In this document: one piece after another, positions 2,464 to 58,699 of the stretch
Layout of the letters: every line of letters starts with the position of its first letter
Position numbering within the stretch: the stretch's first letter is position 1
Assembly: GCA_905178155.1 (NCBI GenBank)
Contig: CAJINV010000019.1
Coordinates: forward strand, 502,475 to 566,474
DNA from: Amoebophrya sp. A120
Lineage: Eukaryota; Protista; Dinoflagellata
Length of the DNA stretch: 64,000 bases
Direction of reading: 5' to 3'
Made by a program: the position numbers and the translations under genes
Notes under the pieces: generated by a model
The model's database searches: none
Told to the model about the DNA's origin: nothing
The model's input: the letters and a program-made list of their open reading frames with translations, nothing else

Positions 2464-2725
2464 TATCAACTGTAAAAATGTCTGGGTCTGGAAGAGTGCG
2501 CGATTTGTCACGTAGCTCTTTCATGACCCATGAGGTCTGTAATGCAGGACCTAACGTGACAGATTCTGTGCACTCTCTCTCATGCCTATCCTGCATGAGA
2601 AACTCCCTCCCGACTTGGTCAAAACTGGACGACTTTTGGTAATCATGCAACACAGATTTTTGCATGCTTCAGATTTAGCATGACAACTTGCATTCTTCCA
2701 GACCCAGACATTTTTACATTCGATA
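2464..2725. mobile_element. Introner family A
   Basis: ~30-bp TIR tatc..tgtaaaaatgtctgggtctggaaga; DR cggag/cggag; may lie in a 5' UTR. Confidence 0.9.
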
Positions 2726-2768
2726 CGGAGCGGCGATCGTCGATGCGTTCGCCGAACAAGAAAACGGT

Positions 2769-5918: not shown

Positions 5919-8900
5919 ATGTCCGACGAGCCTCCGTATCCTGTGCAAAAGTATCGTACTCGTAGTAATCGCAGTCATGCTTGACAAATCTCCTGCCCAA
6001 GGCCAATCAGCATGACAAACTCCATTTGTAATGCTGAGCGAATCTGTATTGCAATTACTACTAGTACGATACTTTTGCAGTGCATACTCCGCCGCCGGCG
6101 GAAGAGGCTCCGGCGGAGGCCCCCGTACAACCGGCTGAGGCTGCTATACCAGAAGAAGCGGCACCGGCGGGCGACGCGCCGGCAGCAGATGAAACTGCCG
6201 CTGCTTCCCCGACAGGTGACGCAGCTGCACCCGCGGAAGCCTCGGTTGCGGAGACATCAGTGGCAGATGCCGGCACACCCGGGACCGACGCCCCGGCAAC
6301 CGGCTCGGTTGCCCTCGCGGGCGGGCTGGGGGCGTTGCGAGCGGCGTCGAAGCTCATGCGACGGACTAGTGCGGGTAATCGCGTGTGGACCAAGGGACAG
6401 CGAGTCAGCGTAGATTTGAGCTCGGCGCAGGGGTCAAAGGTAGTAGAACTTGTTTTTCATCGTGCTCACAAATGGAAGTTACTTGCAGAGGAGCAGTTTG
6501 AATGAAGGAAGTCATTTCATAGTGATGCGAGTTCTATTGTACTGCTTGATGTACATACGATGATATGCAAGAAATAAAAAACATCAAACAGGACCAGCCA
6601 GACGCGGAGGCGGCGCGACTGAGAGCCAAAGAGGCAGAAATTACGTACGTCGATGGAGAGGGTGAGTTGAAAACTGTGTTGCGCGACAAGGATCAACTGC
6701 CTATGCAGATTATGCATCGCAAATATGTCTGGGTCTGAATTTTGGATAGTGCAAATATCTGCGTTGCACGATCTCGACCAAAAGCTGTCCACTTTTGACC
6801 AAGTAGCTGAGAGGGAGTTTCTCATGCAGACGAGGCATGATAGAGGTCAGACAGAATCTGTCATGCTGGGTCATGTATGACAGACCGAGGTCCTGGAAGA
6901 CCTGCATGACAAGTCTTCCAACCTTCCAGACCCAGACATATTTGCATTTGATACAGATCTCCAGTTTCGAGCGGGTGGATGGTTTCGACTTTACCCTGGC
7001 AAAGGTATCTATCTTCACTGCTTCTCGAGTAGATCCTTCGTGTTCAACAACTTGTCTTGCAGAGTATGCATTCTTACGAGGTTTTGTCATGCGGGAAGCG
7101 CATTATTGAAATAGAAATACTTTTTTCACAAAAACAGAATTCCACCTGGGTGTCCGGCACTGAAGTTGCGTTTATCAACGGCCACTCCGTGATTCTGTAC
7201 GACGTCGTATCCGAGGAGCAGAGAATACTTCACGGCAAGGACAGTGGTGGCGTTGGGGCGGTGCAGATCTCGCCTGACGGCGCCTACTTGGCCATCGCGG
7301 AAAGCAGTATGGTTTTTGTTTCGATTCTGCTGTTGCATAAATTCTGAAGAGCAGGATCGTTCTTGAGCCGCATGCACGGATGCTGTACCATGCAACTACG
7401 CAAAGAAGGATCTATCAGCATGATTTTTGTACCAAACATCTATCAGGTATCGAGCCCCTCGAGCAGCCGCCAAGGATATTTATCTACCAATTCCAGACCA
7501 TGAAGGTGCACCGGGTACTGCGGAAGTGTTCTGAAAAGGGCTACGTCGGCGTTTCCTTTTCCCCGCACAACGAGGATCAGCTGGCGTCCCTCGGGGCGTT
7601 TCCAGATTACTTGTTGACGGTGTGGAACTGGAAGGCGGAAAAGATCATGCTGAAGTGTAAGGCGTACGGGCAGGACATCTTCCAGGTACGATGGGGCCAG
7701 TTCCCCGGGCAGCTCGTCACCACCGGTGTCGGGCACATAAGGTTCTGGAAAATGGCGACCACCTTCAGTGGGCTCAAGTTGCAGGTATAGTAGTGGAGCT
7801 TTTTGTCATGTTGATGATGTTGGGAGAAGTTCGTTGTTGCACCATCATTTTTTATTTTTTCCGTGTGTAAAGATGTTGCACATCGCAACTGGTTTTAGTA
7901 CTATTTTTACAATTTATTTTGCACGACTAAAATAAAAATTATCCCTCAGGGCGCCCTGGGTAAGTTTGGTGGAACGGAGCTCTCCGATATTCAAGGCTAC
8001 GTGGAGCTGCCCGACGGAAAAATCGTGACGGGGTCCGAATACGGCAAGCTGCTGTTGTGGGAGGGAGTTTTCGTCAAGTGCGAGTTTGTCGACACGGAGG
8101 GGAAAAACGCCCACGTGGGCAATCTGAACGTGGTGTTCCTGGACGAGGATAAATATGCATTGCAAATATGTCTGGGTCTGGAAACTGGGAACTTGTAATG
8201 CTGGCCTTACATTCCTGTGAAATCTGTATGCATGACCAGCAAAAGTCGCAGCGTCTCTGATCATACGAAAGCGCAGTTTGTCATGCGGAGTGCGCATGAG
8301 AAAGCGTTCTGCAAACTTGTCATGCTCTCCTGCATAAGGAAGTGTCTTCAACATGCACATGTTCGCATTACAAATTTCCAGACCCAGACATATTTGCATG
8401 TGATAACAAAAATCTGAAGACAAAATACGTCGTCTCCGCGGGCGAAGACGGGTTCATAAGGTGGTGGCCGCTTTTGGAAATCGACGCAGCGGAGGCGGAT
8501 TACGATTCAGGTATACTTATACTACAGCTGGGAGTGTTTTTTTTTAATTGCAGGTTTCTTTGCGTGAAATAAAACTTTCCGTTGAAAAAACGCGAATCAC
8601 GAGGGTGTGCTTACTTTTATGCGATCCTTCACAGCAATCACGCAAAGAGTCTTTTTTTGCATCAAAGAATTGAAACAAATCGTGAAAACCCCAGGCTCCT
8701 TGAACGTCACAATCCCTTGCGTGAAGGAAATCGAAGTGCCGCACTCGCCTATCCAGAAGGAAGATTTGCTCGGGTTGTTCTTCTTTGTGGGAAGAAATTT
8801 GCAGATCAGGTTTAGTTCATTTTCGCGGTGGGAATCGAAACGCTTTGAACACAAAGACCTTGCATGTAGTCTACGATTTTGTTTTCACTTGCCATTTTAA

Positions 8901-11900
8901 GTCGGGAAAATTTCGATGCGAATCATTGCAATATGCACGAAGGGAGAAAAGAATGCATGCGTTTTTTCAAAAAGTGAAGTTTTGCTGCACAGTGATTGTA
9001 CTATCAACAGGAAGATACCCCAGTTTTTTTCCCTTTCCATACCTCCTTACCCGGCCTCCATTCAGTCCCTCGCGGTGAGCAAAGACAAAACCAGGTGGGT
9101 GATACAGGACGACAAGAACGGAATTCTCTGGCACTACAACGTGGGCACCAACGAGTTCAAACAACTCTTGAAATCGCACTCGGGCCCGATTTCTTCCGTC
9201 GTCTCGCTACCGCCGTACTTCGGAGGTGTCATCACCGGCGGGGCCGAGGACGGAACCATATGGATTGTAAAAGTGTCTGGGTCTGGAAACTTGTGATGCT
9301 AAAATGTGCATGATGAAAACACTGCCGAATGCAGTCCGGCATGACAACTTCCCAAAACGCTTTCTCATAGGCAATCCGCATGGGAAGCTGCGTTTTTGCA
9401 TGACAAAAGAGGCTGCGACCGTTGTTGGTTGTGCAATACAGATTTTCTAGGTATGGAAAGCTAGCATGACAAGTTCCAACCTTCCAGACCCAGACATTTT
9501 TGCAATCCATAAACCATTCGGCTCTACAACGTGACGGAGGACCAGTCCGTGTCTTCCTCGCTAGTCTTCCAGTCGACGGAGGGCAATCCCTACCCCAACA
9601 CGGGGATCTGCCAGCTGGTGTTACCCCCCCTCGCCGTGGACCCGAGTTGCCGCACGGTCACGGTCGGTTACACCAACGGTGTGATAAGAACCTTCACGCT
9701 CTACCACGGCGCGTTTGTCCTCCGGGAAGCGCTGAAGCCGCACGCAAACGCGAAGATTTCCTCCATGGGTTTCAGTATCAAATGCAAATATGTCTGGGTC
9801 CTCTGGAAGATCAAGGTTGCGAGACTTGTCATGCTAGTCTGGCATGATTCTGCGCTCCCTCTGTATTGCGTGGTCACCAAGAGGTCCTCTTGCCTGTCGT
9901 GCAAAAGCGTAGAAGTTTCTCATGCAAAATAGGCAGTACAGAAGCACAATGAAAAAACTGGTCATGCTTAGCGGCGCATTTCAGAGCACTTATTGTGCAC
10001 GGACTTGCATCACAAGTTTCCAGACCCAGAAATATTTGCAATGCATATTCAGTCCCAACGCGCAATTCTTCGTCTCGATCGGCGAGGATCTGACCGCGTT
10101 TTTCTTCACCGTGAACGCCGACAACAGCAGTCACGGCGGATCGTTGCTGCTGCCCTTAGGGTTTGTCTCCTTCCACTCCAAGTGCCTCTCCTTCTCCTGG
10201 CATTCGAGTTCCGCGAAACTGCTACTTTCCTTCCAAGACGGTACCGTCGGGGAGATTCAAACGCCGAACCTATCAACTGTAAAAATGTCTGGGTCTGGAA
10301 GAATCCAACTTGTCATGCTGATTTTGGATTCTAAAAAAATCTGTATTGCATGAGCAGCAAAGAGAGTCCAAGTTTTGCTACACGGAAAGAGCATTTGTCA
10401 TGCGGTATAGCCATCAGGGAGCCCTCACAAAATCTGTGATGCTAGGGCATGCATCACAGAGATCAGGAGTCATGCAAAATGTGCATGACAAGCCTGGCAA
10501 TCTTCCAGACCCAGACATTTTTACATCTGATAGAACCCAAGTGAGATCGACACGCAGGACAGCTTCGAGATCCAGTTACCACACAAACTCTGGATGTATC
10601 CTGTGTCAAAACGTCCCCACCCCATAGTCAAGTTGGTAAATCTGCAACACAAATCTCCAAGTTTTGGGAGTTATGCATGACAAGTCTCCAGTTGTAATGT
10701 AATCGTGTTTAGCAAGGACAGCCGCATCACAAAGACGCATGCTTGTCCTGTTTACAGCATTACAAATCTCATAACACGACTACAAAGTCCAAGTCCTCTC
10801 ATGCAGATGCGCATTGCAGATGTTTCTGTGGAGGCAAATCTGCATGACAACTATGGGGTGAGGACGTTCTTACTTAGGATAGGATGCCGGAAAGGTTCAT
10901 CCCTGCAGAGCCGTCGAGCGCCGAGGAGGAAGTGGTCGAGGGAGAGAAAAAGGAGGGCGAAGAAGAGGGCGAAGGTATTACGATGAAAAATTCCCCCAGC
11001 CCCGAACTTGAGAGCATCTGTATAGCAAACCTTTCCAAATGAAACATTCGCCCTCTTGCATCTATCAGCATCACAGATTTCCGATCGTGAATAGCAATTT
11101 GTATTGCAAAAGATCCCAGCAAGAGCGGCGTTTCCGTTTGTCATGCAAGCGGTGCGAAACACGCCTAGACTCTGCATCAGAAAGATTCGTACTCCTTTCA
11201 TGCATGACAAAAAGTTTTCATTTGGAAAATTCGCATCACAAATTTTTGCACCTTTGGGGGTGGGGGCGATTTTCCTCGCGATAGAAGGAGAGGAAGGAGC
11301 CGCTGAGAAGCCGAAAGCCGTTGTGGAAGCCGCGGTGGCGAAGCCGAAAAAGGCCAAACCCACGAAGAAGAACACGATGGGCGAGGAAGTTGAGGAGGAG
11401 GCGGAGGCGATCGAAATTGTCGCCGCAGTCTACAGGAACGACGACACAGTGCTCTTCGCAGCGACGGGAGAGTATAGTGAAGTTTTAACATCTGATTTTT
11501 GCGTTGACTGGAACGCAATCACAAATCGTTTATTCTGCTTTATGGGTCCTCGCGTCTATACAAGAAGATAGAACAACTACCTATGCATCCATTCGAAAAT
11601 TATTGAAATTGCTCGGGATCGATCGTTCATTCAAAAGATTAAATGCAAAAAAAAATTCTCTAGGTACAAGCAGTACCTGTACTGCATGTCCGTAGCCTCC
11701 TCCAGTTCCGAAGAAGGCCAGTGGATTCCCACCAGCACGAAATTCGGTGCCAAGTTGTACAACAGTATGGCGTATCCGAAAACGAAATTCCCGGAAACCA
11801 CCATCGTTACCTGCATGACTTTATCCCCCCAGGCGGATCTACTCATGCTGGGCTTCAAGGATTCCAGGGTGTGGCTGGTGCCACTCGAGCACGGGGCGGA

Positions 11901-14900
11901 CCCCAGCAGCGAGCCCATGAGGAAGTACGTGCAGGTGCTGCAGGGGTCAAGCAGAAGCGGGGCCGTGAATTCGCTCAGCCTGATGGGAAACAGCGTGCTT
12001 TTGATCGCGGGCAATGACGGAGTGATGTACACGACGAGCCTGGCAAGAGAAGGCTTGAAACTATACCAAGAAGCGGATAAAAGTACTTTATTTTTGGTCA
12101 AATTTCAGATTCTAGCATATTAACCTGACTCTGTCTATTCACGTGTTGAAAAATTGAATCTTTGCATGTCTGTGCATGAAAAGGAAATCAATACGTGAAA
12201 AAAATTCAAAACAAAATCAGACGGGACGGCGGCCCGCTTCGATGAGAAGCAGTGGGACAGCTACCGGACGCCACTCACCTTCACCGCAGTCGCAGACTGG
12301 AAATTACCGACGATAGAAGACAAACCCTCCGCGGTGAGGGACATCACCGATCCGGCCCATTTTTCCGTGCAGGAGGAAAAATTGAAGTCCGAATTGGAAA
12401 ACGCAAAAGCCGCAGCGGAAAAGAAGAAGGACCATGTCAGGAGCCAGATCGCGGCCATAAGAAAAGACCTGGAGCTGCTGAGGGCGAGCAACGTCACGTA
12501 TAAGTAGTTTTTTTTCTTAAAAATAAAAGATGTAGTAGATGAGTAACGCTTGTTCGCGAAAGTTTGGCATACTGTACTGAGAAGGACGAGACGAGTGGTG
12601 GACAACTGAGCCTTGTCGGTTCGATATGATATCATCTTCTTACTTTAATATGAAACGCAAACCCGTTAACAGCGACTCCGGGGCCGAATTAATCCCCAAC
12701 ATGGTGGCGGATCCGAGTTACATCGAAATCGTGAAGGCAGAGCAGCAACAGAAAATCGAAAACGTGCACACCGAACTCGCGTGGGGCATCGAGTACCACG
12801 AGGTGGCGATAAAGAAATTGAAGGAACGCTTTCTCGACGAATTGGACCACGATATCCTGTGCAAAAACGTCCCCACCCTAGAGCTGTCATGCAAATGCGC
12901 AATGATAGGAACATTTGTGATGCGCAGCCCCATGAGAGGCGTTTCCAGTCGCGTCAAAATTTGTATTATGCTGTTAACAGGATAAGAAATTGACTTTGTC
13001 ATGCGGCTTTCCTTGCCAACCACCACTACACTGCAGAGGGAAACTTGTCATGCACAGCTCCCAAAGCTTGTAGTTTTGTGTTGCTAGATTCCCAACTTGA
13101 CTCTGCGGCGGGGACGTTTTTGCAAAGGATACGCGAGCGCGTCGTGGTCCGCGCGTTTTTGACCCCCTCAAAAATCACGACCTTCCGGGTCAGCGGCCTC
13201 CCCGCGGCGCTGAAGGCGCACCTCGCGGGCCTGCACTCGTTGATTTTCAAATCCGGTGCGCAAACGATGGACGACGACGAAGACAGCGATTTGGACTTGC
13301 AGGACGGCACGAGCGTGAACAAGCTGAAGTCCTTGCAAGACTCCGCCGCGGTTGCGGTGCCGGGTGTGGCAAACCCGCTGGAAAAGGAAAAGGTCCTCAC
13401 CTCCGCGGAGATCCGGGCGGAGAGACGGGCGGCGCGGTTAGCGAGGAAGCAGGAGATGAAAAAGTTGGAAGCGACCAAACCCGGGCCGAACAGTGACGAT
13501 CCGCAGGATTTTATCCAAGAAAAAAACTGTGTTAGTGTAACTCTTTTGGGAAAACTGCATCACAAGTTTGTCTGCTATGATAGGAAAAACTTGTTATGCG
13601 CAGATACGAAGGGAAAACGCCTAGGAAGCGAGCCGATCATGCATGTCAAGCATGACATCAAATGTAACAGTTTTGCATTTTCTGCATCACAGATTTACAC
13701 TTACACAGTTTTTTTCTTGCATAGATCTGGACGCGATCCAGCTGGCGAAGGACACTTTGGGAAATTACTTGCTGAAAACCGCCCCAGACTACAAGGTATC
13801 CTGTGCAGAAGTATCGTACTCGTATTGCAATCATGCATTACAAATCTTTTTCTCAAGGTAAATCCGCATTACAAATTTTATTTGTCATGCTGAGAAAATT
13901 TGTAATGCATTTCTACGAGTACGATACAATACTTTCGCGATTCATACAAGGTTCCAGAAAACCAAAGAATCAATGCGGAGAAGAAAAGGAGACAAATGTT
14001 CTTATTGGAAGAATCGGTGCATGCAATCAAGATGGAATTCACGCAGAAGGTTTTGGCTTTGCGGGATTTTAAGGAGGAGGTGAAGAAATCCGTGAAGCGC
14101 GATTTAATCATGCTCGAGCAGATCGGGGGGTCCATCGCCGACAATTTGAAGGCGATGGTGGTCGGAAAAGAAGCGACGCAAATGGACGAATATCCGGAAA
14201 AGCGATTTGATTACACCGAAGAAGAATTGACGGACTTCGCAAAGACCGGGAGACTATTCGCGGACGAGGCGGGGAATGGAGCGGTAATTTTTTTTTTTGA
14301 CTGAGTGGTAGGATTTCGTTTTCCAAAGCCTGGCGCGCTTTTTACAAGTTCACTTCGCTTTATTATCTTGGATCCGCATTTTCAGTTGTAATATGGTCAA
14401 GTTTTGCTTTTCACAATGTAAGTATTCAAAAAAAATCAGGACTCCGCCCCCTCGCACGAATTTCCAACGGAATACGATATTCGGTCTGTCTATGCATTTG
14501 GAAAAAAGTTTCGCACTGTTGTTGTGGGGAAGTGAATTTTGTTGACAGATGTTTTTCAGTCGCGGCTGACATGCTGAGCAGGCGCCGCTTGATTTGTGAA
14601 CGAGTAAAGCACAAATACTTACTCCACTGCAAGCATGCGATACAACTTTTTTTCCCCCTGACACCAGTCGGCTTAGGAAGATGCAGATGCGGCAGCGCGC
14701 CATCACGAACCCGCTGTCAAGTTCCTCCAGCAACCCCCTGGCTAAAATGTGCATCGACGAGTACGAGCGAAGAACGGTTTACAACCGACAGCAGCTGGAG
14801 CAGCAAATCCGGGAAAAAATCGACGGATTTGACGAGGCGGTCTGCCAGTTAGAGAAGGAAAAAGCAAAACTTGAGTCCGATCTCAAGAACGCCCAGACGA

Positions 14901-16600
14901 AACTGTTACTGCTCTACGAGGAGCTTCAAACGCTGAACGACTTGGAAGCGGAGGACGCGAAACTGATGCAGAAGTCTTCCAAGTGCAAGCAGGACCGGCT
15001 GACCATCATGGCGCAGATCAAGGAGTGTCAGGACAAGCTGCAGGAGAAGCGGGACGAAATCGAAAACTGGAGGAACGAAGAACAAAACTTACAGGCCGAA
15101 TTCACCGACACGGTCGGGGAAACCAGCCCGTTTCTGCCCGTGCTGCTCAAGCTGTACAAGAAGAAGGTTAAGAGGAAGAAGAAGAAGGCAAAAGACAGCG
15201 ACGAATCCGGGGACTCGGACGAGGATAGCGACGACGACGACGTATCTTCTGGGAAAACACCATCGCACTCGCGTAAGGTGATTTGCAGCTGTTATTTGCA
15301 TGTTACAGCAGACTTTGTTCCCTATTGCCTGTGTCTGCATGACAAACTGCATTTTTTTCCTGGGTTCACTTGCTCATGCGATTTATAATTACACTAGTGC
15401 GATTAGTAGTTTTGGAATGCATAAAAGGATGATGATGACGACGACAGCGACGAGGAAGAGCAGGAGGAGGATGTGTGCCCGCAGGGCTGCGACATGAGCG
15501 TTTACGAATCGGTCTTAGAACTCCGAGACAAACGATTAGACATGGAGGACGCGTTGTTAGAGATTCAAAAAGCGGTCGAGGAGTTGAGAAGAAGTCACCA
15601 GAAATTGCTCTCCGACGAGAAAAAGATCGACAAGGAACAGGAGCAGGCAGACAAGGAGATCCAGGGGTTCCAGTCCGAAAAACAGAAAATGTTGAACAAA
15701 ATCGTGCTGGCGCTCACCCTGCGGTTGAGTCAGGTATACTGTAGTCAAAAATTATGTTACATAATGAAGCAACCAGAATTGTCAGACAATTCTGGTTGCT
15801 TCGTTGTGTCCACAGCATGGTAGTTCGATCTATGCATGAAAAGAAAGAACTAGGTCATCACGACGCAACGCAGGCGTTTTATGAAAACGAAAAATTATCA
15901 ACAACAGGTCCAATGCCTCACCGACCCAGAAAACGAGGGAGACTTTGCCCAGCTGGCTTTGAACCTGAACGACTACCTCGTGTTCCCGAACGAGAGACTG
16001 AGACTACTGATGCAACGCATCACGGAGCTGCACAACGAGAAGGCGAACGTGCGCAAGCAGTACAAGGCTTTGAAGAAGGAGTTTGTCGTCCGGGGGAAGC
16101 AGAAGAAGCTGGTCGCGGCGGAGATTGAAGATCTGGAAATCAAGTTTCAGGACCTGCAGCGGCTGAAATTCGGGCAGCAAATCGATTTGGACCTAATCGA
16201 GAAGGAGACGGAAGAAGACCCCTACATGATTGAGTTAGAAAACAAGATCGGGTCCGAGGAAAAGGAAATGAAGAAGACCAAAGCCCACTGGATGAAGAAG
16301 CTCGACGACGTGACGAAATTATTGCAAAGCGAAACGGACAGAAACACGGAATTGAACGAAAAGTTGGTGGAGCTCGGGTACCAGAAGGTCGAGTTGGACG
16401 AAACGTTGAACGCCAGAATCAGCAATGTCACGATCAACGACGACGTCACGCTAGAACTCCGGATAAAAGAGGAGGAGAAGATGCAAGAACAAATTTCGGC
16501 ACAGCAAGCGGAGATCCAGACCTTGCAGGCGGAAATCCAACTGTTCCGGAAGAAGGGCGGACATATCTACACCACGGTAACCTCGAACCGGCACAACTAG
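5919..16600 (+). CDS. CFAP44: Cilia- and flagella-associated protein 44 (WDR52/FAP44): WD40 repeats plus C-terminal coiled coil; multi-exon
   Basis: Spliced product contains [121 protein letters not shown] and FRKKGGH, all recognisable CFAP44 segments; 12 introners and about 12 GT-AG introns traced. Confidence 0.92.
5937..6086. mobile_element. Introner family B (150 bp)
   Basis: TIR tat....tgcaaaagtatcgtact; DR ctccg/ctccg; joins MSDEPP|PPAEE. Confidence 0.9.
6711..6953. mobile_element. Introner family A
   Basis: TIR; DR cagat/cagat. Confidence 0.9.
8154..8405. mobile_element. Introner family A
   Basis: TIR; DR ataaa/acaaa. Confidence 0.9.
8750..9041. mobile_element. Aged introner with degenerate TIR
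   Basis: TAT...ATA ends, weak TIR, DR tcgcc/cctcc; removal +5 nt gives HSP|YPASIQSL. Confidence 0.65.
9259..9511. mobile_element. Introner family A
   Basis: TIR; DR aacca/aacca; joins WD motif DGT|IRLYN. Confidence 0.92.
9776..10047. mobile_element. Introner family A
   Basis: TIR; DR ttcag/ttcag; joins GFS|PNAQF. Confidence 0.92.
10271..10532. mobile_element. Introner family A
   Basis: TIR; DR gaacc/gaacc. Confidence 0.9.
10597..10881. mobile_element. Introner family C
   Basis: TIR tatcctgtgtcaaaacgtccccacccc; DR ggatg/ggatg. Confidence 0.9.
10976..11283. mobile_element. Introner family D
   Basis: TIR tat....atgaaaaat.ccccc; DR gaagg/gaagg (also yields GT-AG). Confidence 0.9.
12853..13131. 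mobile_element. Introner family C
   Basis: TIR; DR cacga/cgcga. Confidence 0.88.
13512..13723. mobile_element. Introner family E
   Basis: TIR tat.caagaaaaaaactgtgt; DR gattt/gatct. Confidence 0.88.
13797..13946. mobile_element. Introner family B
   Basis: TIR; DR caagg/caagg (also yields GT-AG). Confidence 0.88.
15242..15427 (+). other. GT-AG intron that retains introner geometry (fossil introner)
   Basis: G|TAT...ATA aaAG|G, residual inverted aaaac....atcgcact at both ends, internal gcatgaca. Confidence 0.6.
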
Positions 16601-37961: not shown

Positions 37962-39374
37962 GACCAGCACATGATTTGGGTGCAGCTTTTGTGGAGGTGA
38001 AAGCGGGTCTAATTTGCTTCCAATTAGATACGTATTCAAACAAGTTTTTTCGTAGAAATCAATTTTCAAGAAAGTCGCTTTATGTCCATTCATTCGACAA
38101 GCTGAAGCTTAAGGCTGTTTCGTAAAGGCTTTTATTCAAAACATCCCATTAAAGACAAAAAACTTGGCCCGATTTGTGAGGGAAAAGCCTTTCCAAGAAA
38201 GACCCGCCACGAAAAAAGGACCGTAAAACAAACCGTTAAAAGGGAACAGCTGATACTCAAAAACACCGACTTTATTAGGGACCGAATTTCTATTTTCATT
38301 CTATCCGACAAAAAAAAGAGCATTCACAGTCGCCTGCGTTAGATGCGGGAGCCTGTGAAGATGCTTTAGACAATAAACACACATCTAATGACTTTACCTG
38401 GAACAACATTTTTACATATTGGAGGTTTTTTATTGTTTCGCTTTATCACGCCAGGGACAGGGTTTCGAAGAATTCAAAGCGCGTAGTTCGGATTTTGTTT
38501 TGAAATTTTACGTCGCCGGTAGTACTTATCCGTAGGAATACGGACATATGTCGTGCAAGGGCGCACTACTGTGCCCCCCTAGTCTGATTTTTTGAAAAAA
38601 GTACACTAAAGAAAATGTTTCGTGATCGTGCATGAAAAGAACGTAAAGACTTTGACATTGCTTTGCAACAATGCCTTGTACCTAGAGCCGTTGTAATGGA
38701 CGCCGGATCATACTACTACATGAAACTCATTCTGCTAGAATCTCGGGGATGCGAAAACGTCTCAAGAACCGTATTGAAAAATCACTGGCGGAGCTTGTTT
38801 CCGTTTGTTCTCCTGTTTGTTTTGCAAGGTCTAGGTGTTACCGTTTAGTAGAACCACGCTAATGGAGGAAAATGATTGCGGCTGAGAGCGGTTGCGAAGG
38901 TTATTTCTGTTTCTTGTGTTAAGTATTTGCGATGAGAAAAAATGCGGGTCAAAAAAGGCTGGTTTAACGCAGAACAACTCTGCCTCTTATACGGCTTAAT
39001 TTCTTTTGCCGTGCGTCAACACAAACTAAAATAGATTCCGTGGTGCAGATGAACTTTCAGAGCCAGAAGAATCTTGCTGCAGCTAGTGCGCGAAGCATTT
39101 TTTACAACCATTTTTATTTTCATGTGTGTACAACTAGAACCGTTTCTCGCTGTCAAGATGAGCATCGTAATATCGGCAAGCTCTGCCGCTTTGCGGACTT
39201 CCTCTGGAGGTGCTACGTCGTCGCACACGGTGACTACCTCCGCGAGAGCAGACCCAAACGCGGAGAGGTAGCACGAGGCCGTTTTTCCTATTTCCCGGAG
39301 ATTTTCATCTAGGTCGACGCGCACACTACATCCAGGGGTGAGGTCGCGACTGCAGCTCTTCTTCGAATTAGATC

Positions 39375-48300: not shown

Positions 48301-48963
48301 ACTGGTTCGTCAAGCGGAAGTGAGCAGAATGGCCAGGAAGAAGACCATGGAAGCGAACAACTGCAGGACCACGTCGGCATAGTAGAGAGAACATCCTCCA
48401 AAGAGCAGGACTCTGCAGCTTTTGCCAATAAAGTAGAGAACAACTACAGCACCAGCACGTCCCAATCCTCTCCCGACAAGAATTCGTTCGCGGCCAGCTG
48501 GAAGGTGCGGCTGAAGAAGGTGGAAAACCCGCGGCAGAGCGCGTCGAATTTCCAGATGCCCAGTACGCCCGCGCCGAACCGGTTGCCGACGGAGTTGTCG
48601 TCCTCCCTCAGAAAGCACCTCCAGCGGAAATCCGAGGAGCGAGAGAGGGAAGAAGGTGGACAGAATGCTGCTGATACAACTTCTTGCCAGCCTCAAGTTC
48701 AACATGGCCGGGAAAGTTTCGGGATTAACAGCGGCGAGGCAGGGCCAGGTGGAGAGAGAGTGCAAAGTCGGGGTGCAGAGGTCGTGAACGAGGAACAACA
48801 CGAACAGAAAGAGAGCGATTCTTTTCCTGCGGGTTGTATCGCTGCGCCGAGCGGATTTTTCTGGGAACAGACCAGCGGGGATTTGAGATCGTCGCCGCCG
48901 GACAATCCGCGATCCGCCTTTCATTTTGACAACACAAATGAACAAGAAGATGTAGTGGAATGA
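39375..48963 (+). CDS. RLK/Pelle (IRAK-like) Ser/Thr kinase with Tudor-like and FHA domains and long disordered regions
   Basis: LEKATSNFSPLNKLGSGAFGSVYKG, VAIK, RFRHPNLVILMGF, HRDIKTPNIIL, DFGLA, GTVGY, VYAFGMVLLELLT; Tudor-like GMRVRARW...DIQYDDGD; FHA VGR...ISREHF...SSNGLMLNG...IQHGDIL; 12 introners and 2 GT-AG introns. Confidence 0.82.
39700..39923. mobile_element. Introner family I (single copy here; AGA right end)
   Basis: TIR core gtgcacaact; DR ccggt/ccggt; joins kinase LSR|FRHPNL. Confidence 0.87.
40380..40529. mobile_element. Introner family B
   Basis: TIR; DR tgtgt/tttgt; in the kinase activation loop. Confidence 0.88.
41298..41550. mobile_element. Introner family A
   Basis: TIR; DR tgatg/tgatg. 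Confidence 0.9.
41599..41858. mobile_element. Introner family A
   Basis: TIR; DR ttgcg/ttgcg. Confidence 0.9.
41926..42246. mobile_element. Introner family G (TAC left end)
   Basis: TIR; DR acgag/acgag. Confidence 0.87.
42510..42776. mobile_element. Introner family A
   Basis: TIR; DR agatg/agatg. Confidence 0.9.
43346..43669. mobile_element. Introner family G
   Basis: TIR; DR gtcga/gtcga. Confidence 0.88.
44115..44366. mobile_element. Introner family A
   Basis: TIR; DR gggta/gggta; in the FHA domain. Confidence 0.9.
44578..44894. mobile_element. Introner family D
   Basis: TIR; DR cgggc/agggc. Confidence 0.88.
45562..45840. mobile_element. Introner family C
   Basis: Long near-perfect TIR; DR tgccc/cgccc. 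Confidence 0.9.
47245..47506. mobile_element. Introner family A
   Basis: TIR; DR cgcga/cgcga. Confidence 0.9.
47788..48038. mobile_element. Introner family A (ATG right end)
   Basis: TIR; DR agaac/agaac. Confidence 0.9.
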
Positions 48964-49563
48964 ACAGAAAAATATAAAAAAAACACTATTAGTTTTTACA
49001 CATCGTTTGGTAATTGACAGAACACGACACTTTTTCTTTTGAAGCACCTGCTTTGACGCGGTTCGTTTTGATCCTAGAATTTTCCTTACTGTAGCTTTGA
49101 AAATATTCCTCTTCGCAAGAAGGAAGAAAAAGAGATGCTTCAGCCTGGGTGGAGCAGAGGTGAGAACATCATGAATAATGGATGACGCCATTTTTTTGCC
49201 CAAAGAAATTTTCATTTGCGCCACGCGATAAACGTCGAGCCTGGAGCAAATAAGACACTTGCGACGTCTTGCCTGTCACATTGTAGATGCGGAGGTTTCT
49301 TACTACTACCTCGGACCTTGTTCTGGTGCTTGTTTTTTTTCTGGTTTCGTTTGCCGGGTGACTTTGTCGTGCGCTTCGCTGCACTGTCGTATCGTGATCA
49401 AAATATGACTTGTGTCTTGCGCAACATCAAAAGTAGTTTGAAGATGTGAAGCCGTTCTCATCAATCCCGCACGATACACATTTTTTCGTGGAAGGAAATA
49501 CGACACGGGACGACCCATTGACTGAGCCATTGTTGCGTGGTCTTTCCACCTTGCCGCGCCAGC

Positions 49564-52500
49564 ATGCTGTCGACGCGACGGCAGGCCACGGCGAGCTGCC
49601 GAGGGGTTTTGCAGCGACGAGGCTTTTTCGGAGTGAAGAGCCCAGTGGAGGTAGTACAACTTGTTGGTGGCAATATTTTCTGTGTCGTGCAACATCTTGA
49701 TTTATTTTGTACTCGAGCCTGTCATGCATATTTGCAGCACCAGATGAACATCTCAACCATTCTGATTCTCACTCTTCAGGCCAGCAGCGGCGGTGTGTAC
49801 GTGACAAAGTACCAGATTACGAAAAAGGGGAAAGCCGGCGTCGATTACGATGACTTCCTGCTCACACTTATCCTGTGTAAAAACGTCCCCACCCCATAGC
49901 CAAGATGGAAAATCTGCTAGACAGATCCATAAGTTTTGGGAGTCACGCATGACAAATTTTTCTCTGTACCGCAATGCGGGTTAGCAAGGACAACCGCATC
50001 ACAAAGCCATCCTGGTATCGTGTTTACAGCATCACGAATTGCATAACACGATTGAAAATACCTCTCGTGGGGATGCGCATATACAAGTTTTCCTGTGATG
50101 GCAATTCTGCATGACAACTCTGGGTTGGGGACGTTTTTTCACAGGATAACCCTCCCGCAGCGCGATCAGCTGGCGTCGGAAACGAAGCAAGTGGAATATG
50201 GCCTGCTCAAACGTTGCAATCTCAAACGTTACATTAGAATCTGGATTTTGTATTGCATGAAGAGCATGAGGAACGTATAGAGAATTGAGCTTTTCGCAAT
50301 ACAAATTGAGCCGAATTCTCAATGCAGTTTGGAGCCCCCGAAATACTTGTTATGCGAAATCCTATGGGAGTAGGCTAGATCATGCAGCTCTTGCATCACA
50401 GATTTCCAGACTCTTTTGTAACGTTTGAGATTGTAACACCTGAGAGGGTTATATGGAACTGTTCTTGAAGTACCTAAAAGTGGTGACTGACCACGAAGCG
50501 AGAAGCGATGACTTCAAGGACTTCTTGAAAAGATCAAAGGACGGCCTGATGGTGGAGTCGGACGTGTTTATCACCACGGAGGAGCTGCTCAGCGCGATGT
50601 GGGCGAACGGTTTCGCGGAGAAGGTTTGTGATGAAATTTGTGTTGCTTAAAGCAGACTGTCAGTCATGTTGATAGATATTTTTCGTAAGTTTTTCTTGCT
50701 CTTGCATTATGCTACTGATCTCAGGTGATGTTGACTACCGACGTGTTGATCTGTACTTGATGTGAACCGAAAAAAATCCTACAGGAGCGAACTGCGGTGC
50801 AGTACACATTCCCAGCCGAGTACAAATTCCACTATCCCGAGCTTGCCGTGCTGTTCAACATATCGGAGGAAGATTGCTACAAGTACTGCATGAGAAAACG
50901 AATAGAAGCCAGCCACATTGGTCAGCTGGACTCGAAAAAAATGAAGCCCGGGGGCTGGGTCAGGGACCACTGGTATAGAATAGATTGTGTTTTGCGAGGC
51001 AGTGTTTGCTCTTGTTGTTCCCGGTGCATGACAAGGCTACACACACTTACTTACTTACATCAAAATGGTACGTCCACTTCGAAATATGTATCAATCAGGT
51101 TGATTTTCGGGGCCTCGATTTTCTTGCTGAAGACCTTTCCCTTATGAAATGTAAAAATGTCTGGGTCTGGAAACTTGTGATGCTGGGTGGCGTCTCATGA
51201 TGAGGCCAGAAATGCTGGCTCAGCATCACAAGTTTCTGAGCTTCTAGGTGTTGCCTATTCTGCATTACAAACTGCGTTTCTGCATCACAGAAAAATGGAG
51301 CTCTTGGGTAACTTGCATGACAGATTTAAGAGTCATGCCAGACAAGCATGACAAACATGCATTCTTCCAGACCCAGACACTTTTACATTTGATATCCCTT
51401 CTTCAACTACTACTTCGCCCTGAAAGGCTTCGGTACGGGCATGTTTCTGTGGACGAGTTACACGGCGTTTTCCCGCTACATCGGCGACGTGATACAAAGA
51501 AACGAGTTTATGGCCGCCCAGAAAACCGCACAAGACGTGATGGAGGGCGAGGACAAGATTATGGCTGCCATGAAGAGATTTGCGAACGACAGCAAGTGCC
51601 TGGACCGCTTGGCCAGCTTCAGCTCGGATTTGAGGGTGTTGAGAAGGATTTTTCAATGGTGCTGGTTACATTGACAAATTGAATCATTCGCTTCTTGTTT
51701 CGGAAGTTAGTAGTGCATGACAATGTAACATCAACTCCATCCACCTTTTCACTTCGTAAAAAATAACCCCATATCAGCCCACCATGGCGAGCTACCGCAA
51801 GGCGCTAATCGAAGCGGAAAAGCAGCAGCTTATCGCGAAAGCAAAGAAACAGCTCCAGTCCATTCTCTCCTTTGAGGATTCGAACGGCGCGAAGTTGCAG
51901 GATAGTTTGGTCAAGGAAGTAAAAGCCGACTTCACCCGGAAGTTTGGTACCGATGCGAGTATGCAGTCCGCGGCATTTGAGTCAGCGTTGACAGGTACGC
52001 ACTTTTTGCTTTGCAGCTGCCTGTGCTTCATGCCATTGCTGAACGCCCGCGCGACCCTTTTCGAACATCCTGGCGCGCCAGAACCCCCGACCCTGCCCCG
52101 ACCCTGCCCCGACCCTGCCCCGACCCTGCCCCGACCCTGCCCCGACCCTGCCCCGACCCTGCCCCGACCCTGCCCCGACCCTCGCAGTTTGGCTGGGTTT
52201 TGCGCGCGGGATCCGGCCGGAAGGGTTCCGGCCCCCCATCCTAGGGCGCCGCCTTTCCTTGCAGTGCGTAGGACCTATAGTGCCGACGATTCGCGGGCAC
52301 ATGCTCGTTTTCGCATTTGTTCTGTTTTCCCGTCCTCGCAGAAGGGCCGAACAGTGGTCGAGCAAGGACCAGGATGCAGGTCGCCCACTAAGGGCGTATT
52401 TGCGTTTAAGTTGGCACTTCATCACCTCCTCGTGCATATTTAGCGCGCAACCCCCTCCGCCCTAACAAAAAATCCCAGGCATCTCCGGCGAGACTTCGAA

Positions 52501-53159
52501 ACAGGACCCGGTGCTGAACTTTTTCGCGGACAGCCTGAAGCAGATTGACCTCTCGGGCAAAGCGAAGGCGAACGCGTCCGGCAGTGTGTCCGAGCGACTG
52601 GCCTTCATGCAGCAGCAACAGGAGCAGGAGTTCGTGAAAACGTTCTACGTCACCGCCGAAGAGACGACCGCCGTGAAGTCCGCCAGCGACGAGGCGGCGA
52701 AGACGAAACTGATGGAGCTATCAAATGCAAATATGTCTGGGTCTGGAAGATTTCTCGATTTATCATGCACATTTTCCATGGGCCATGATGTCTGTGATGC
52801 ATGCCGTAGCATCACAGATTTTTAGAGGGCTTTGTGATACCTCTACCGCATGAGAATTGCCCTCTCCGCGTAGCACAAACTGGAGTCCTCTTCCTGGTCA
52901 TGCAATACACGTTTTTTTAGAATCCAGAGACAGCATCACAAGTTTAGAATGTTCCAGACCCACACATATTTGCATTTGATACGAGCAGCTGTACAGCAAG
53001 TGTGGGTTCCACGTTCCCGGGGCCTACACCATGACGGACGCGAAACCTCCATCCGACAGCGGCAGTGACTACGTGAAGGAAGTCTCTGATGCGGTCGGGA
53101 AACTGACCAAGGAGTTAGAGCAAAAACGGGCGGCCAGCTTGCAGGCTGCGTTTGCATAG
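49564..53159 (+). CDS. Mitochondrial ATP synthase peripheral-stalk subunit b, apicomplexan type (Toxoplasma ICAP2-like)
   Basis: Arg-rich presequence; KYQITK, LFLKYLKVVTD, FPAEYKFHYPELAVLFNISEEDCYKYC, MKRFANDSKCLD, EQLYS and terminal AFA* resemble Toxoplasma subunit b as I recall it; 4 introners and 5 GT-AG introns. Confidence 0.8.
49869..50148. mobile_element. Introner family C
   Basis: TIR; DR acact/accct. Confidence 0.9.
50197..50453. mobile_element. Introner family F
   Basis: TIR; DR tggaa/tggaa. Confidence 0.88.
51143..51394. mobile_element. Introner family A
   Basis: TIR; DR tccct/tccct. Confidence 0.9.
52085..52182. repeat. Perfect 11-bp tandem repeat (ccccgaccctg) x ~9
   Basis: Read directly; lies in intron 51995-52478. 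Confidence 0.92.
52719..52981. mobile_element. Introner family A
   Basis: TIR; DR ggagc/cgagc. Confidence 0.88.
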
Positions 53160-53682
53160 GACAATGCTTGAGAATTTGGTCGAGCATTGGACCTATGCAG
53201 GGCGAACGAAGATGTGACGAACCTTTACAACAGCATCGTGCATAAGTTAGTACGCGGACAAGTGAATGTGAGATCTTTTCTTTACGTCGGATGAAAAACT
53301 GAATTCTTTGATGCAACAAACTGAGCTTCTCTTTGCTCTCTTGGGTGGAAGTCTTGCACAGATGAGCCGGATGCTACGTTGAAGCTATCTCTTTGTTTTT
53401 TTCGGAAGAAGATATGCAAGGAACACTAACGCAGGTCGTGTTCTTCTAACGAAAAGCACGCGAGGAAGATGTAAAGTTCTTTGGGTTCCTTCTTAGGAGT
53501 GGAGAGGGCTTCACACACGCGAGGGGAAAGGGTAACAGAGTCTGGGGAATGTACAGTTCTTGTAAAAATGGAGCGGCAAGTCAGAGTGAAACTACCCTCC
53601 TGGTATCGTATCTTCGGTCGTTATAGCTTGACGCAGCGTGTTATTCCTCGTCTTCTCAAAACACGACCTTGCACAGATCAAA

Positions 53683-55146
53683 ATGGCAACTCCCGCCACT
53701 TCGTCCGCAAGTTTCTCGTGGCAGGTCGCCATCGGTTCAGCAATCAATCTTGCCGGCTACGCATTGCAAATCGGCGTTCTGAAGTTGTTCATTCTCCGTT
53801 ACGATTTTCCCCACCCACTGTTCCTCACGTTTCTCGACCAGCTGGTGGCGTTTTTCGCGATCTTGTTCGTGACGCACGTGGTGAAGATTATGCCAGACCC
53901 GAGGGTGGTGCCAAGGTTCGTGGCGGACGTGAAGGAGAGACTGAAGAAAACCAACCGGCGGCTGGACTTCACGGACACAGCTGGTGCGGCGGACCAGGAC
54001 GAAGTTCTTTCGGCATTGGTGAACAAGGGAGAAGCTGCTGGACAAAGTGCCGTCAAAAACAAAACAAATCAAGGTGAAAGCCTAGGAACCACGATAATTC
54101 CGACGTACAATTTCAAGACCCAAATCCTCCCGCTAGGCTTGCTCAACATCATATCCGGCGCCACGCACTACTCGGCGCACGAGTTTCTCTTTCCGAGCTT
54201 CGTGGAAATGATGATGATGACGCAAACCGTGCCCCAGGTCTTGCTCAGCAAATTTCTCTCCCGCGACATCTCGACCCTGACCTTGATCTCCGTCATCCCC
54301 ATCACCTTCGGGTCGGTCCTCTGCGCCTTCGGCGAAGTGAACTACAGTGTCAGTGGGATTGCGCTCGTTCTCGGCGCGATGCTCTCCGGGGTGTTCCGTC
54401 GGGCGGTGGCAGAAGGGGTGATGAAAAGCGGGCAGCAGGCGGCGGGACCACGTGGTATTAGAACAACGTCCTCTTCCACCCCGGGCATCGTTCCCAAGAC
54501 CGATGGAAGTATAAACGCAGGAATAAATAACTACAGCGAACTGCAGAAAAACAGTTCCTATGGTGCCGCACCAGCCGGCGCCTCTACTTCTGGACTACAA
54601 GAGCCGCCGAAACCAGTAGGGTTAAATCCATCCAGGAAAAATGACCCGACCCTCTCCGAGAAGATGATGGTCAGTTGGGGTATGGCGTACCGATTGACGC
54701 CCATCAACGTCGTCGGGTTACTGCTCCTTTCCCTCTTCGTCGAGGGCTCGGAGCCCTGGACGGAGGTGCACGGTAAAATAATAGTCTCCACGAAGTTTCA
54801 CTCGATTTATTTCGGGCTGATGCTACTCGTTTTTAAAGGTTTAGGAACCACTGTTTGGTACATATCCGAATTCACTCTCGTTCACTTCGCGGGCGCGTTT
54901 TACATGGCAGTTTTGAACAACATTAGTCGCGTAGGGGTGATATTCACGACCCTAGCCGTATTCGGCAATTCGGTATCGAGTTTGCAGGGCTGTGGGTTTG
55001 CGCTCACGCTTCTCGGGGTTGGTGTTTACCTCTATGATTTTGGCTTTGGTAAGAACAGAAGTACAACACCAGCTTCTGCCGACGTGCCAGCCTCTGTCAC
55101 GGCGTTGAGTGATGATGCCTACAAGGAAAGAGCAGTGAAGCAGTGA
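53683..55146 (+). CDS. Triose-phosphate/nucleotide-sugar transporter family (SLC35/DMT), intronless
   Basis: About 10 hydrophobic segments; DFPHPLFLTF, LCAFGEVNYSVSG, VFGNSVSSLQGCGFALTLLGVGVYLY typical of TPT/SLC35E. Confidence 0.8.
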   Translation: MATPATSSASFSWQVAIGSAINLAGYALQIGVLKLFILRYDFPHPLFLTFLDQLVAFFAILFVTHVVKIMPDPRVVPRFVADVKERLKKTNRRLDFTDTAGAADQDEVLSALVNKGEAAGQSAVKNKTNQGESLGTTIIPTYNFKTQILPLGLLNIISGATHYSAHEFLFPSFVEMMMMTQTVPQVLLSKFLSRDISTLTLISVIPITFGSVLCAFGEVNYSVSGIALVLGAMLSGVFRRAVAEGVMKSGQQAAGPRGIRTTSSSTPGIVPKTDGSINAGINNYSELQKNSSYGAAPAGASTSGLQEPPKPVGLNPSRKNDPTLSEKMMVSWGMAYRLTPINVVGLLLLSLFVEGSEPWTEVHGKIIVSTKFHSIYFGLMLLVFKGLGTTVWYISEFTLVHFAGAFYMAVLNNISRVGVIFTTLAVFGNSVSSLQGCGFALTLLGVGVYLYDFGFGKNRSTTPASADVPASVTALSDDAYKERAVKQ

Positions 55147-55909
55147 TCTTCTTCTACGATTTTTTCCGCTAATTTTGTTTTCCAGAAAAGGAAAAATCCG
55201 CCATGGCATATTAGCGGGACATTGACTGCTTTCGCTTTGCGACATGTTGGGATATCTACTGTGCTATACAAAATAAACGTGATCGTCGGAGTTCGTTCGT
55301 GAGGCAGGATCTACTAGCACTGAATGATCACGGAAAAATTCTTGTATGATTTGGGGAACTGCTTCTGCTAGGTAAAGGTAAACAGATTATTGGGACGTTT
55401 CGTACAAGACAAAGAAAGAGAGACTAGTGAAGACGCGAGATGAATTGAGGGGAGCTATTTCTATGCGAACATCTAAGCGAGTGAAGCTGCAGAATTAAGA
55501 GACAAAACAGCAACACTTACTTAGATTTTGCACTCCTGGCACCCGCACCGCTGCCTCGATTTTTCCGTTTGTACGTTGATAGACTTCATCTCGTGAAGAT
55601 ACGATGCGTGGGTCGTTGTACGGCTGAGAAAATTCATCTGGGATAGAGTAAATTACACTCCATCTTGGCGATCTGTCGTGCCGAGTCGTTTAATATTCGC
55701 CAAACTACCTCCACCCTGACCTTGCGTCTCCACAAATTTTCGTGGCACTGCTAATAAAGGACAATAACCAGCTGGATTCATCCGCACACACGGTGTGCGT
55801 GGTGGTGAGTAAATTTTTTGTGCCTGCTAAGGAGACTGACATATATTTCCCCGACGAAAAACGGCTTTATTCTGTGCACCCCGCGTTGGGACAAGCACAA
55901 GACAAGAGG

Positions 55910-58699
55910 ATGACGGCGTTCTCCTTCGCCGCTGTCGCCGCCAAGTGGTTCTACCTCTTCTCTCCCATATCAAGAACTGCAAAAGTGTCTGGGTCTGGAA
56001 GACTGCGAAACTTGTCATGCTGATCTGGCATGGCCCTTAAATCTTCTGTATTGCGTGGCCACAAACAGCCTCTCTCGCCTGTCATGCAAAAACACAGCTT
56101 CTCTTTCTCATGCGGAATACGCAGCACAGAAGCACGAAAAAACTTGTCATGCTTGGCGGCGCACTACAGTGCATTTGTTATTGGCTGTCTTGCATCACAA
56201 GTTTCCAGTCAGACCCAGACATTTGTGCACTTGATATCCCAGCAGCCGGTACAATTCCTTCGTTTTTGCCCTGGCCGAGCTGAAGGGCGCCAAGGAGACC
56301 AACCATTTGCGAGGAGCGGAGAAGGTATGCATGGCAACTCTAGGAACGGAGGACACTTTTTTGCCTAGTAAGAGAACAGGTTTTCCTCGTCGCCTGTATG
56401 ATGCTGCCCTGTTTGCTGTAGTCCGGAGTCACATTAGCATTGAAGAACGTAATGCATTTCTCTATTCACTCACAGGTCGGCTACACTCAAGAAGATGACC
56501 ACGTGGTTGAAGATGCGGTTCCTGCGGCCATGCTGGAAAAGGTATGTAGATCTTATTGGACATTTTACCTCAGTAGTAGATTCTCCTTACGGGACGGTAT
56601 GTCGTCCTCTTTATCGTCCGTAGTCAAAGTAGCACTGAAGTACAGTGTACCCTTCGCAACTTCACTCACAGGCCGGCAATCACGAAGATGATGACGCTGC
56701 TGCAGATGCTGCTCCTGCCACGTCTGCACTCCAGACCAGCACCACCAGTGGGGCCGATGATGCTGCGCTCGGTCAACAAGATGACGTCGATTCGCGCGAG
56801 ATGGGGGAGGTACTCATTATTGTGGTCGGAGTTTTTTAATGTAGTAAATAAGTATTGCGCCACGTGATGTGGTAGGATATGAATATGATCCACCTCTTTG
56901 TGATGCTGGTGCTGTTTATTCATTGTCAGAACTACGCGATTATACTCGAACATCTCATATTTTCACTCACAGGCCGGCAACCACGAAAGTGACCACGTCG
57001 CTGAGGATGCTGCTGGCGCCAACTCTGCACTCCAGACCAAAACCAGTGAGGCCGATGATGCTGCGCTGGGTCACCAAGATGACGTCGATTCGCCCGGGGT
57101 GGAGGAGGTACTTACTTATTATTGTGATCACAATTTTTTAATCTTGTGGATGAGTATCTCGCCACGTGATGTGGTAGGATGTGAATGTGATTCACCCCTT
57201 TGTGATGCTGGTGCTGTTTGTCAGAGTTACGCGATTATACTGGAACGTCTCATATTTTCACTCACAGGCCGGCAACCACGAAAGTGACCACGTCGCTGAA
57301 GATGCTGCTGGCGCGAACTCTGCACTCCAGACCACCACCAATGGGGCCGATGATGCTGCGCTGGGTCACCAAGATGACGTCGATTTGCCCGGGGTGGAGG
57401 AGGTACTTACTTATTATTGTGATCACAATTTTTTAATCTTGATCTTGTGGATGAGTATCTCGCCACGTGATGTGGTAGGATGTGAATGTGATTCACCCTT
57501 TTGTGATGCTGGTGCTGTTTGTCAGAATTACGCGATTATACTGGAACATCTCATATTTTCACTCACAGGCCGGCAACCACGAAAGTGGCCACGTCGCTGA
57601 AGATGCTGCTGGCGCCAACTCTGCACTCCAGACCAAAACCAGTGAGGCCGATGATGCTGCGCTGGGTCACCAAGATGACGTCGATTTGCCCGGGGTGGAG
57701 GAGGTACTTACTTATTATTGTGATCGAAGTTTTTGAATCTAGTGGACGAGTTTTGCGCCACGTGATGTTGTAAGATGTGATCCTCTTTGTCGTGCTCTCT
57801 GTCAGCACTGTACTAATTACACTTGAACATCTCATAATTTCACTCACAGGCCGGCAACGACGTTGCTGCAGATGCTGCTGCCGCCAACTCTGCACTTGAG
57901 ACCAGTACCGGCATGGCCGACGCTCTTGCCCCCCCCCCCCCCGACGGACCGGATACGGGGTTTCTCGTGAGCAAACTGAACCAAATCCAGGACGGCCGCA
58001 CGGGTCTGGTGCAAGCCGGAGTCTCCGTATCCAAGAAAAAAACTGTGTTGCTGTAACTCTTTTTAGGAAACGGCATGACAAATCTTTTTGGCATGACAGC
58101 GTCATGCGCAGTGAGTAAGTACGCGAAAGCACGTACGTAGCCTGTCATTCATGTACAGCATGGCAAGTGTAACTGCGTTGGATCTTCTGCAACACGGGCT
58201 TACACTAAGACAGTTTTTTTCGTGCATACTGCGACCGCGAGGTCGACGTGATGTCGTGGATGATGAACAAAACTGGCCTATCCTAAGTAAAAACGTACTC
58301 ACCAAATAACAAGATTTCGATTTATCATGCAAATCTACGCGTCTGAGTGTAGAATATGATTCTTGCGGCTCCCCATGAGGGCCATTATGTCATCCGGATA
58401 TTTGGCATGCTCTATATTATAAATGATGCGAATTCAACATGTTGACGCGTCTGCGCTATGAGCCAAGTGAGACAACCCTGCGAGTTCGAAGTTGTCATGC
58501 GCAACAACCAAAATATCTTCGCTTGTGATGTAGCAGAATTCCCATCTTGGCAATAATCGGTTCGGTACGTTTTTGCACATGATACGGCAACGCCACCCGT
58601 GTTGCGGAAGCGTACAAAAGCGGCTTCGTCACCGAGTTCAGTCTCCGGGATGGCGACAATGACAAGGTCCTGACTTATCCGAGTGGGGAGAATGACTGA
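55910..58699 (+). CDS. Putative secreted acidic repeat protein built from tandem exon-intron units
   Basis: Hydrophobic N-terminus, repeated exons AGNHESDHVAEDAAGANSALQT...EE, each with a tcactcacag acceptor and GT donor; 3 introners; frame closes at TGA 58697-58699. Confidence 0.65.
55968..56236. mobile_element. Introner family A
   Basis: TIR with small indels; DR tccca/tccca. Confidence 0.88.
56460..57900 (+). repeat. Tandem ~300-bp exon+intron repeat
   Basis: Units start at tcactcacag near 56466, 56662, 56963, 57258, 57559 and 57840; the middle three are near-identical. Confidence 0.88.
58028..58228. mobile_element. Introner family E
   Basis: TIR; DR ctccg/ctgcg. Confidence 0.85.
58279..58584. 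mobile_element. Introner family C (diverged)
   Basis: TIR tatc....g.aaaaacgtac; DR tggcc/cggca. Confidence 0.78.

Follow-up and report, generated by a model that had tools for sequence, protein, structure and literature searches.

Introners of Amoebophrya sp. A120 fit a single splice register and share a donor core with host GT-AG introns

Results

We analysed a 64,000-nt window of the Amoebophrya sp. A120 genome (contig CAJINV010000019.1, positions 502,475 to 566,474, forward strand), whose genes are interrupted both by GT-AG introns, hereafter host introns, and by TAT...ATA elements flanked by 5-nt direct repeats, the introners. One register, [last left repeat base]TAT...ATA[first four right repeat bases], hereafter 1+4, is the simplest fit to the element junctions and is held here with high confidence, although it is not proven for each intron. 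Under the register N|TAY...ATA-NNNN (N, any base; Y, pyrimidine) introners begin N-T-A-Y, like host GTAY donors minus the G, and the donor core +2 T, +3 A, +4 Y is common to both intron classes. We infer that a relaxed U2-type spliceosome likely removes introners and host introns alike (probability about 0.7).

The window contains 64 curated TAT...ATA elements spanning 2463..59396, all within + strand genes, 148-369 nt in length and totalling 16,590 nt when one repeat copy is counted per element. Starts are TAT in 60/64, TAC in two (37575 and 41926) and CAT in two (22260 and 27368); a reading made from the sequence alone, which our analysis followed up, had recorded the TAT and TAC starts correctly and overlooked the two CAT starts. 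The elements end in ATA in 61/64 cases, most carry strong terminal inverted repeats, and the flanking 5-nt direct repeat is perfect in 43/64. They are the published introners of A120 (PMC7789003), with the same TAT-starting terminal inverted repeats, direct repeats, repeated families and removal from likely-RNA contigs, and their inverted ends, fixed-length target duplication and insertion in both orientations are those of miniature inverted-repeat transposable elements; 35343 and its oppositely oriented relatives 28555 and 31904 are all removed. Element coordinates generally give the base after the intron start in the 1+4 register (element 31595, intron start 31594). Two decayed elements (14491 and 34961) were kept out of the set, as was a doubtful 426-nt TAT...GTA candidate at 60343-60768, which has a near-perfect 5-nt repeat and lies outside the gene models built.

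The cut at each junction was described by k, the number of left-repeat bases retained, so that the 1+4 register corresponds to k=4. Junction contigs were presumed to be RNA; the two samples behind them belong to a single study, which is probably also the source of the annotation. From 28 listed joints (15 of 51 in one set and 13 in the other) we used 22 local splice joints, 5 host and 17 element-type, after dropping five that join different element copies and one internal to an element. Among these, every element was removed as its own length plus five (17 element joints), and an N-TA or G-CA start lay within the allowed cuts of all 22 joints, while 5/17 element joints had neither GT/GC nor AG at any allowed cut. 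Mismatched repeats made six of the 17 informative, and k=4 was the sole value fitting all six; the five true introners still gave k=4 when the decayed 34961 (k 3-4) was set aside.

These five introners constrain the cut from different sides. At 27367..27634 (+; contig joint 27363>27632 in X1 and X4) an introner with the ends G-CAT...ATA-AACC retains 1-5 left bases. The introner at 30554..30832 (+; joint 30549>30829), with repeat ACTCG/ACTCC, retains 0-4, so that the last left base is intronic. At 31594..31746 (+; joint 31590>31744), where the repeat is CGACC/GGACT and the terminal hairpin is strong (z -5.0), 1-4 left bases are allowed, with the first left and last right bases kept. The introner at 32265..32530 (+; joint 32262>32529; AGGTC/AAGTC) retains 2-5, and that at 37265..37522 (+; joint 37264>37523 in X1 and X2; GACCA/GACAA) retains 4-5, with no GT, GC or AG at either allowed cut. 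Retention of the whole left or the whole right repeat is ruled out by 30555, 37266, 31595 and 34961. The sequence-only reading, which proposed the 1+4 register, had named mRNAs always carrying one whole repeat as evidence against it, and at 31595 and 34961 neither copy is retained whole. No joints for 22260, 22916, 3939 or 58279, whose repeats would also discriminate between registers, were among those listed, and two raw-read runs (X9 and X10) yielded 4 and 165 reads, all on element pieces and none across a junction.

Annotated proteins gave a further check on the register. A CFAP44-like gene at 5919..16600 (+; annotated A120 protein P0001 mapped) has 24 introns, of which 10 are host GT-AG, 13 are introner-derived and one is of the form C-TAT...CAG; 1+4 splicing across all 24 regenerated the 1896-residue protein exactly, and exon 14681-15238 is 100% identical to the CFAP44-like protein annotated for A120. 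The same model applied to a second gene produced a 1515-codon open frame across 23 introns. Protein-bounded junctions allowed k 2-5 at 12853, 4-5 at 15243 and at least 1 at 8750 and 52719, all compatible with k=4. Exon 51402-51620 is 100% identical to another annotated A120 protein. A protein search with exon 30834-31094 returned no match, and one with a kinase exon returned relatives alone, the gene's own protein being absent from the matches.

Host introns were supported by two annotated proteins, by contigs from the presumed RNA runs or by open reading frames (ORFs) alone. The 20 protein- or contig-supported host introns have the donors GTAT (10), GTAC (5), GTAG (2), GTAA (1), GTTT (1) and GTGT (1), and the 12 ORF-only introns have GTAT (5), GTAC (6) and GTAA (1), although the ORF-only GTAC introns comprise four tandem copies and a duplicate pair and are not independent. 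GTAY thus accounts for 15/20 supported donors, against a frequency of 0.108 among 3383 + strand GT dinucleotides (p 3e-11), and for 26/32 when ORF-only introns are included, close to the 26/33 first reported from sequence. Across the 32 donors, +3 is A in 30, +4 is Y in 28 and +5 is G in 7, and GTAAGT occurs in none, as had been claimed. The 15 host introns scored have inverted-repeat scores of 5-8 of 20, that is, no terminal inverted repeat, and are therefore not recognisable as old introners. They are AT-rich, with A/C-rich, nearly G-free 3' ends (e.g. 6576-6591) and C at -3 in 13/15; neither a polypyrimidine tract at the 3' end nor ATA at -7..-5 was found in those scored.

Thirteen GTAT donors had been proposed by coordinate. 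All 13 positions read GTAT and 12 are donors: 7005, 7307, 7785, 8511, 11472, 12498, 15734 and 50973 agree with annotated A120 proteins, 25869 and 40925 have open-frame support alone, and 28244..28412 and 34769..34895 (both +) are joined in likely-RNA contigs. The thirteenth, 34955, failed as a donor, since contigs join 34958/34959 to 35207/35208, placing the donor at 34960 (GTAG) or 34959 and the end at a non-AG sequence. Contig joints also support three + strand GTAC introns, at 29010..29165, at 37011..37195, where the junction is unambiguous (zero slack), and at 29761..30477, a 717-nt intron that the contigs skip and whose tandem array (29844-30347) repeats a 16-nt unit about 30 times. Two + strand host introns supported by annotated protein P0035 are exceptions to N-T-A, with a GTTT donor at 50624..50784 and a GTGT donor at 51636..51777.

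To enlarge the sample of element ends, a second assembly from a metagenome collection was searched by pattern (loci L001-L167): 223 elements were called, 172 oriented, and 161 with a repeat match of at least 3 used, giving 225 with the 64 from the window. Orientation relied on a codon model that, at the nearest settings, was correct for 38/39 and 10/10 of the window elements scored. The second assembly shares element families with the window, with up to 96% identity to window copies; its best matches are element-sized only, and among them no shared insertion site was seen. In the combined set the +1 base follows exon composition (G in 69/225, p 0.77), as expected from the claim of a free +1, and a terminal AG is present in 23/225 against 7% expected (p 0.09), with GT-AG in 11/225. 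The target duplication is thus not enriched for G at +1 and at most slightly for AG, unlike in introners of the Aureococcus/Polarella type, which draw canonical splice bases from it, and most elements lack the canonical combination of a GT or GC start with an AG end.

The inner positions behave differently on the two sides. The inverted repeat makes +2..+4 the pairing partners of -5..-7, so that constraint from a transposase or a hairpin alone should be symmetric. Among the 161 second-assembly elements +2/+3 departed in none, as opposed to six departures at the paired -5/-6 (p 0.03); once the window elements are added the counts are 2 and 9 (p 0.065), both donor-side departures being G-CAT. 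At +4 a change to C or G occurred five times, and -7 changed twice. The proposed conservation of +2..+4 accordingly holds at +2/+3 and is less strict at +4, with C possible at +2 after G. The G-CAT starts at 22260 and 27368 are the only elements with C at +2; in each the +1 base is G, which yields a GC donor, and no such start occurs among the 161. An A at -7 is present in 64/64 window and 159/161 second-assembly elements, which hints at a branch A; an invariant branch A at -7 was rejected because of the two departures.

Two introns show donor-type and acceptor-type features varying independently, one case each. At 14490..14667 (+; annotated protein, donor 14490 or 14491) a C-TAT donor is paired with an ordinary CAG acceptor, forming a CT-AG intron with a decayed inverted repeat (12 of 20) and no direct repeat; P0002, an independent relative derived from transcripts, remains collinear through this junction. 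Conversely, the intron at 34960..35207 (+; joint 34958>35207 in X1 and X2) reads G-TAG...ATA-CCCC, without repeat or terminal hairpin (inverted-repeat score 6 of 20; fold z -0.65), and k, counted as for the elements, is 3 or 4. The terminal stem usual in elements is absent from both.

Individual introners illustrate the range of ends. The G-CAT introner at 22259..22519 (+) has a GC donor in the 1+4 register and a repeat mismatch at position 5, and its removal leaves an open frame, with no RNA-contig joint among those listed. A G-TAC introner lies at 41925..42250 (+; removal leaves an open frame) and an A-TAC introner at 37574..37824 (+; likely-RNA contig joint). Only 4/64 elements are GT-AG in the 1+4 register: 10975, 13796, 36343 (repeat CGAGG; 36343..36609, +, likely-RNA contig joint) and the decayed 15242 (G-TAT...ATA-AAAG; 15242..15427, +), where the protein permits donor 15242 or 15243 only. 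The expectation that GT-AG arises only with an nnAGG repeat was borne out by three of these four, the decayed one having a repeat whose left copy ends in G and whose right copy has nnAG.

Discussion

In the text of PMC7789003, 65% of A120 introns are described as non-canonical, with no clear end-dinucleotide signature and with splice sites at varying positions with respect to the hairpin; the inverted repeats start with TAT, 3-5 nt direct repeats mark the boundaries, the elements are spliced out, and hairpins are suggested to bring the exons together. Its Table S4 lists nine of nine predominant non-canonical motifs as NT-NN in A120 and nine of nine as TT-NN in A25, whose repeats start with TTA, which is the pattern that a free +1 with a fixed U+2 predicts. 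The same work found 83/89 spliceosomal proteins and did not detect snRNP27 or U1 small nuclear RNA (snRNA); our Rfam search of the window returned no match of any kind, snRNAs included. The loss of SNRNP27K or METTL16 is associated with +4 U, pairing with an unmethylated adenosine in the ACAGA box of U6 (Parker et al., PMC10581693), and the non-detection of SNRNP27K may, if this relation extends to A120, explain the +4 Y of its donors.

If the remover is a spliceosome, it cannot be the normal one supposed in the sequence-only reading, which would need G+1 and a final AG. In the mechanism we propose, U+2, A+3 and Y+4 would be read in both intron classes and G+1 and the final AG would no longer be required. 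U6, more than U1, would read the donor core, and +4 U would be favoured, as happens in yeasts lacking SNRNP27K or METTL16. The 3' cut would fall at YAG in host introns or four bases past ATA in introners, an offset that might be measured by the terminal stem (+2..+4 with -5..-7), a nearby branch site or both. In solved spliceosomes exon ligation involves a pairing of G+1 with the final G; these two bases may have been released together. With palindromic ends and an unconstrained 5-nt target, an element could insert anywhere in coding sequence, whichever its orientation, and be removed without protein change. A bolder version, in which A120 and A25 alike have a spliceosome that lacks U1, no longer checks for G+1 or the final AG, reads only U+2 A+3 Y+4 by U6 and applies a four-base ruler after AUA, is tentative and stands at somewhat below even odds; were it true, one hidden code would span the 'canonical' and the 65% 'signature-free' introns, and palindromic transposons would land in coding sequence free of cost.

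A separate non-spliceosomal or structure-guided enzyme that cuts a set distance away from the terminal hairpin (1 base 5' and 4 bases 3'), as in a proposal for euglenid nonconventional introns, would make the GTAY match coincidental. The strong terminal inverted repeats of most elements, as at 31595 (z -5.0), the freedom of +1, -1 and -2, the undetected U1 and the hairpin-mediated exon joining proposed in PMC7789003 all suit such an enzyme. We nevertheless consider it unlikely, given that 34960 is cut at ATA+4 without a terminal hairpin and 14490 couples C-TAT with a plain CAG (one case each), that +2/+3 on the donor side are less variable than the bases they pair with, and that both +2 C variants follow G to make GC donors. 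Should the spliceosome instead choose the most canonical-looking cut in each intron (GT, GC, GA or AG), the single register would be an artefact of few cases. This is distinctly improbable: 31595 does permit GA...AG, the proposed cut yields GT or GC in 30555, 34961 and 27368, several frames are in use among Polarella classes (bioRxiv 10.1101/2020.10.14.339549) and PMC7789003 terms the sites variable, yet 5/17 listed element joints have no GT, GC or AG at any allowed cut, targets are enriched neither for G at +1 (69/225, p 0.77) nor more than barely for AG (23/225 vs 7%, p 0.09), and the six informative listed joints and the protein-bounded ones all include k=4.

It is very improbable that host GTAY donors are relics of old GT-AG introners, the match reflecting descent rather than what the machinery reads. 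Introners are most of the introns in the window, and GT-AG introners do exist (10975, 13796 and 36343, with 15242 decayed). Against descent, host introns are AT-rich, lack terminal repeats and ATA at -7..-5, and have C at -3 in 13/15; GTAC, which few introners have (2/64), makes up one third of the GTAY donors, and decay would erase TAY unless it were selected.

Several points weigh against the inferred removal by a relaxed spliceosome in a single register. The junction contigs are only guessed to be RNA, and the two samples of one study behind them probably also gave rise to the annotation. Junction reads bound the cut and cannot place it among identical bases, 31595 also permits GA...AG at k=1, a pair known from dinoflagellates, and aligner placement of ambiguous junctions may bias Table S4. 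Two host donors lack +3 A (GTTT and GTGT), -7 A is missing in 2/161, which runs counter to an obligatory branch A there, and the needs of a transposase would also conserve TAT/ATA. The non-detection of snRNP27 and U1 may be a detection failure in a fast-evolving genome.

Comparison with known systems sets A120 apart in several respects. In the strain from Karlodinium introns are mostly GT-AG and all five snRNAs are present (PMC12005148). Class 12 introner-like elements of Polarella glacialis (bioRxiv 10.1101/2020.10.14.339549) share with A120 the 5-nt target duplication and the 1+4 geometry: an NNAGG target provides a donor made of its last base and the element's first base, and an NNAG acceptor. 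There, as described, the target must supply G and AG, whereas the A120 target supplies any bases (G 69/225, AG 23/225). Transposon-derived non-GT-AG introns of the tunicate Fritillaria borealis are removed by a U2-type spliceosome with reduced N6-methyladenosine in U6 (PMC13326754, PMC11282704); they prefer AG-AC and AG-AT ends and U1 is kept, whereas A120 is free at +1, -2 and -1 and its U1 is undetected. Saccharomycotina without METTL16 or SNRNP27K resemble A120 in the +4 U preference and undetected SNRNP27K, but their donors keep G+1 and G+5, whereas A120 host donors have +5 G in 7/32 and allow +4 C (PMC10581693). Euglenid nonconventional introns likewise have a terminal stem, repeats like target duplications and non-canonical ends, but their stem begins at +4 and, as described, they have no donor core in common with host spliceosomal introns (PMC11282704).

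The elements themselves are already published, and we found neither the fixed register nor the shared TAY donor in print for A120: the text of PMC7789003 gives no fixed 1+4 cut, shared TAY donor core or SNRNP27K link, although its figures (Fig. 3 logos, Figs S19-S25) may show part of this. How tens of thousands of signature-less introns are removed in A120 and A25 was a question left open in 2021. A fixed register offers testable positions (U+2, A+3 and Y+4; ATA four bases ahead of the 3' cut) and a rule for genome re-annotation, and points to particular components: Prp8, U1, SNRNP27K and U6, the last for its ACAGA box and the methylation there. If the spliceosome does the removal, two features regarded as nearly universal, G+1 and the final AG, would be dispensable in a living eukaryote, and the spread of transposons through coding sequence without target preference would be explained.

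Additional observations

Repeated structures accompany several host introns. A 484-nt host intron at 51995-52478 contains a 10-nt GC-rich tandem repeat at 52086-52180. At 56690-57850 a unit of about 300 nt, exon plus intron, is tandemly duplicated, so that a single open frame contains four GTAC introns resembling one another. Within 20219-21453 a short exon with a GTAC donor occurs twice, about 1170 nt apart, flanking repeated inverted arms, and may represent alternative exons. Between genes, positions 17300-18700 form a GC-rich island (up to 65%) with short inverted repeats.

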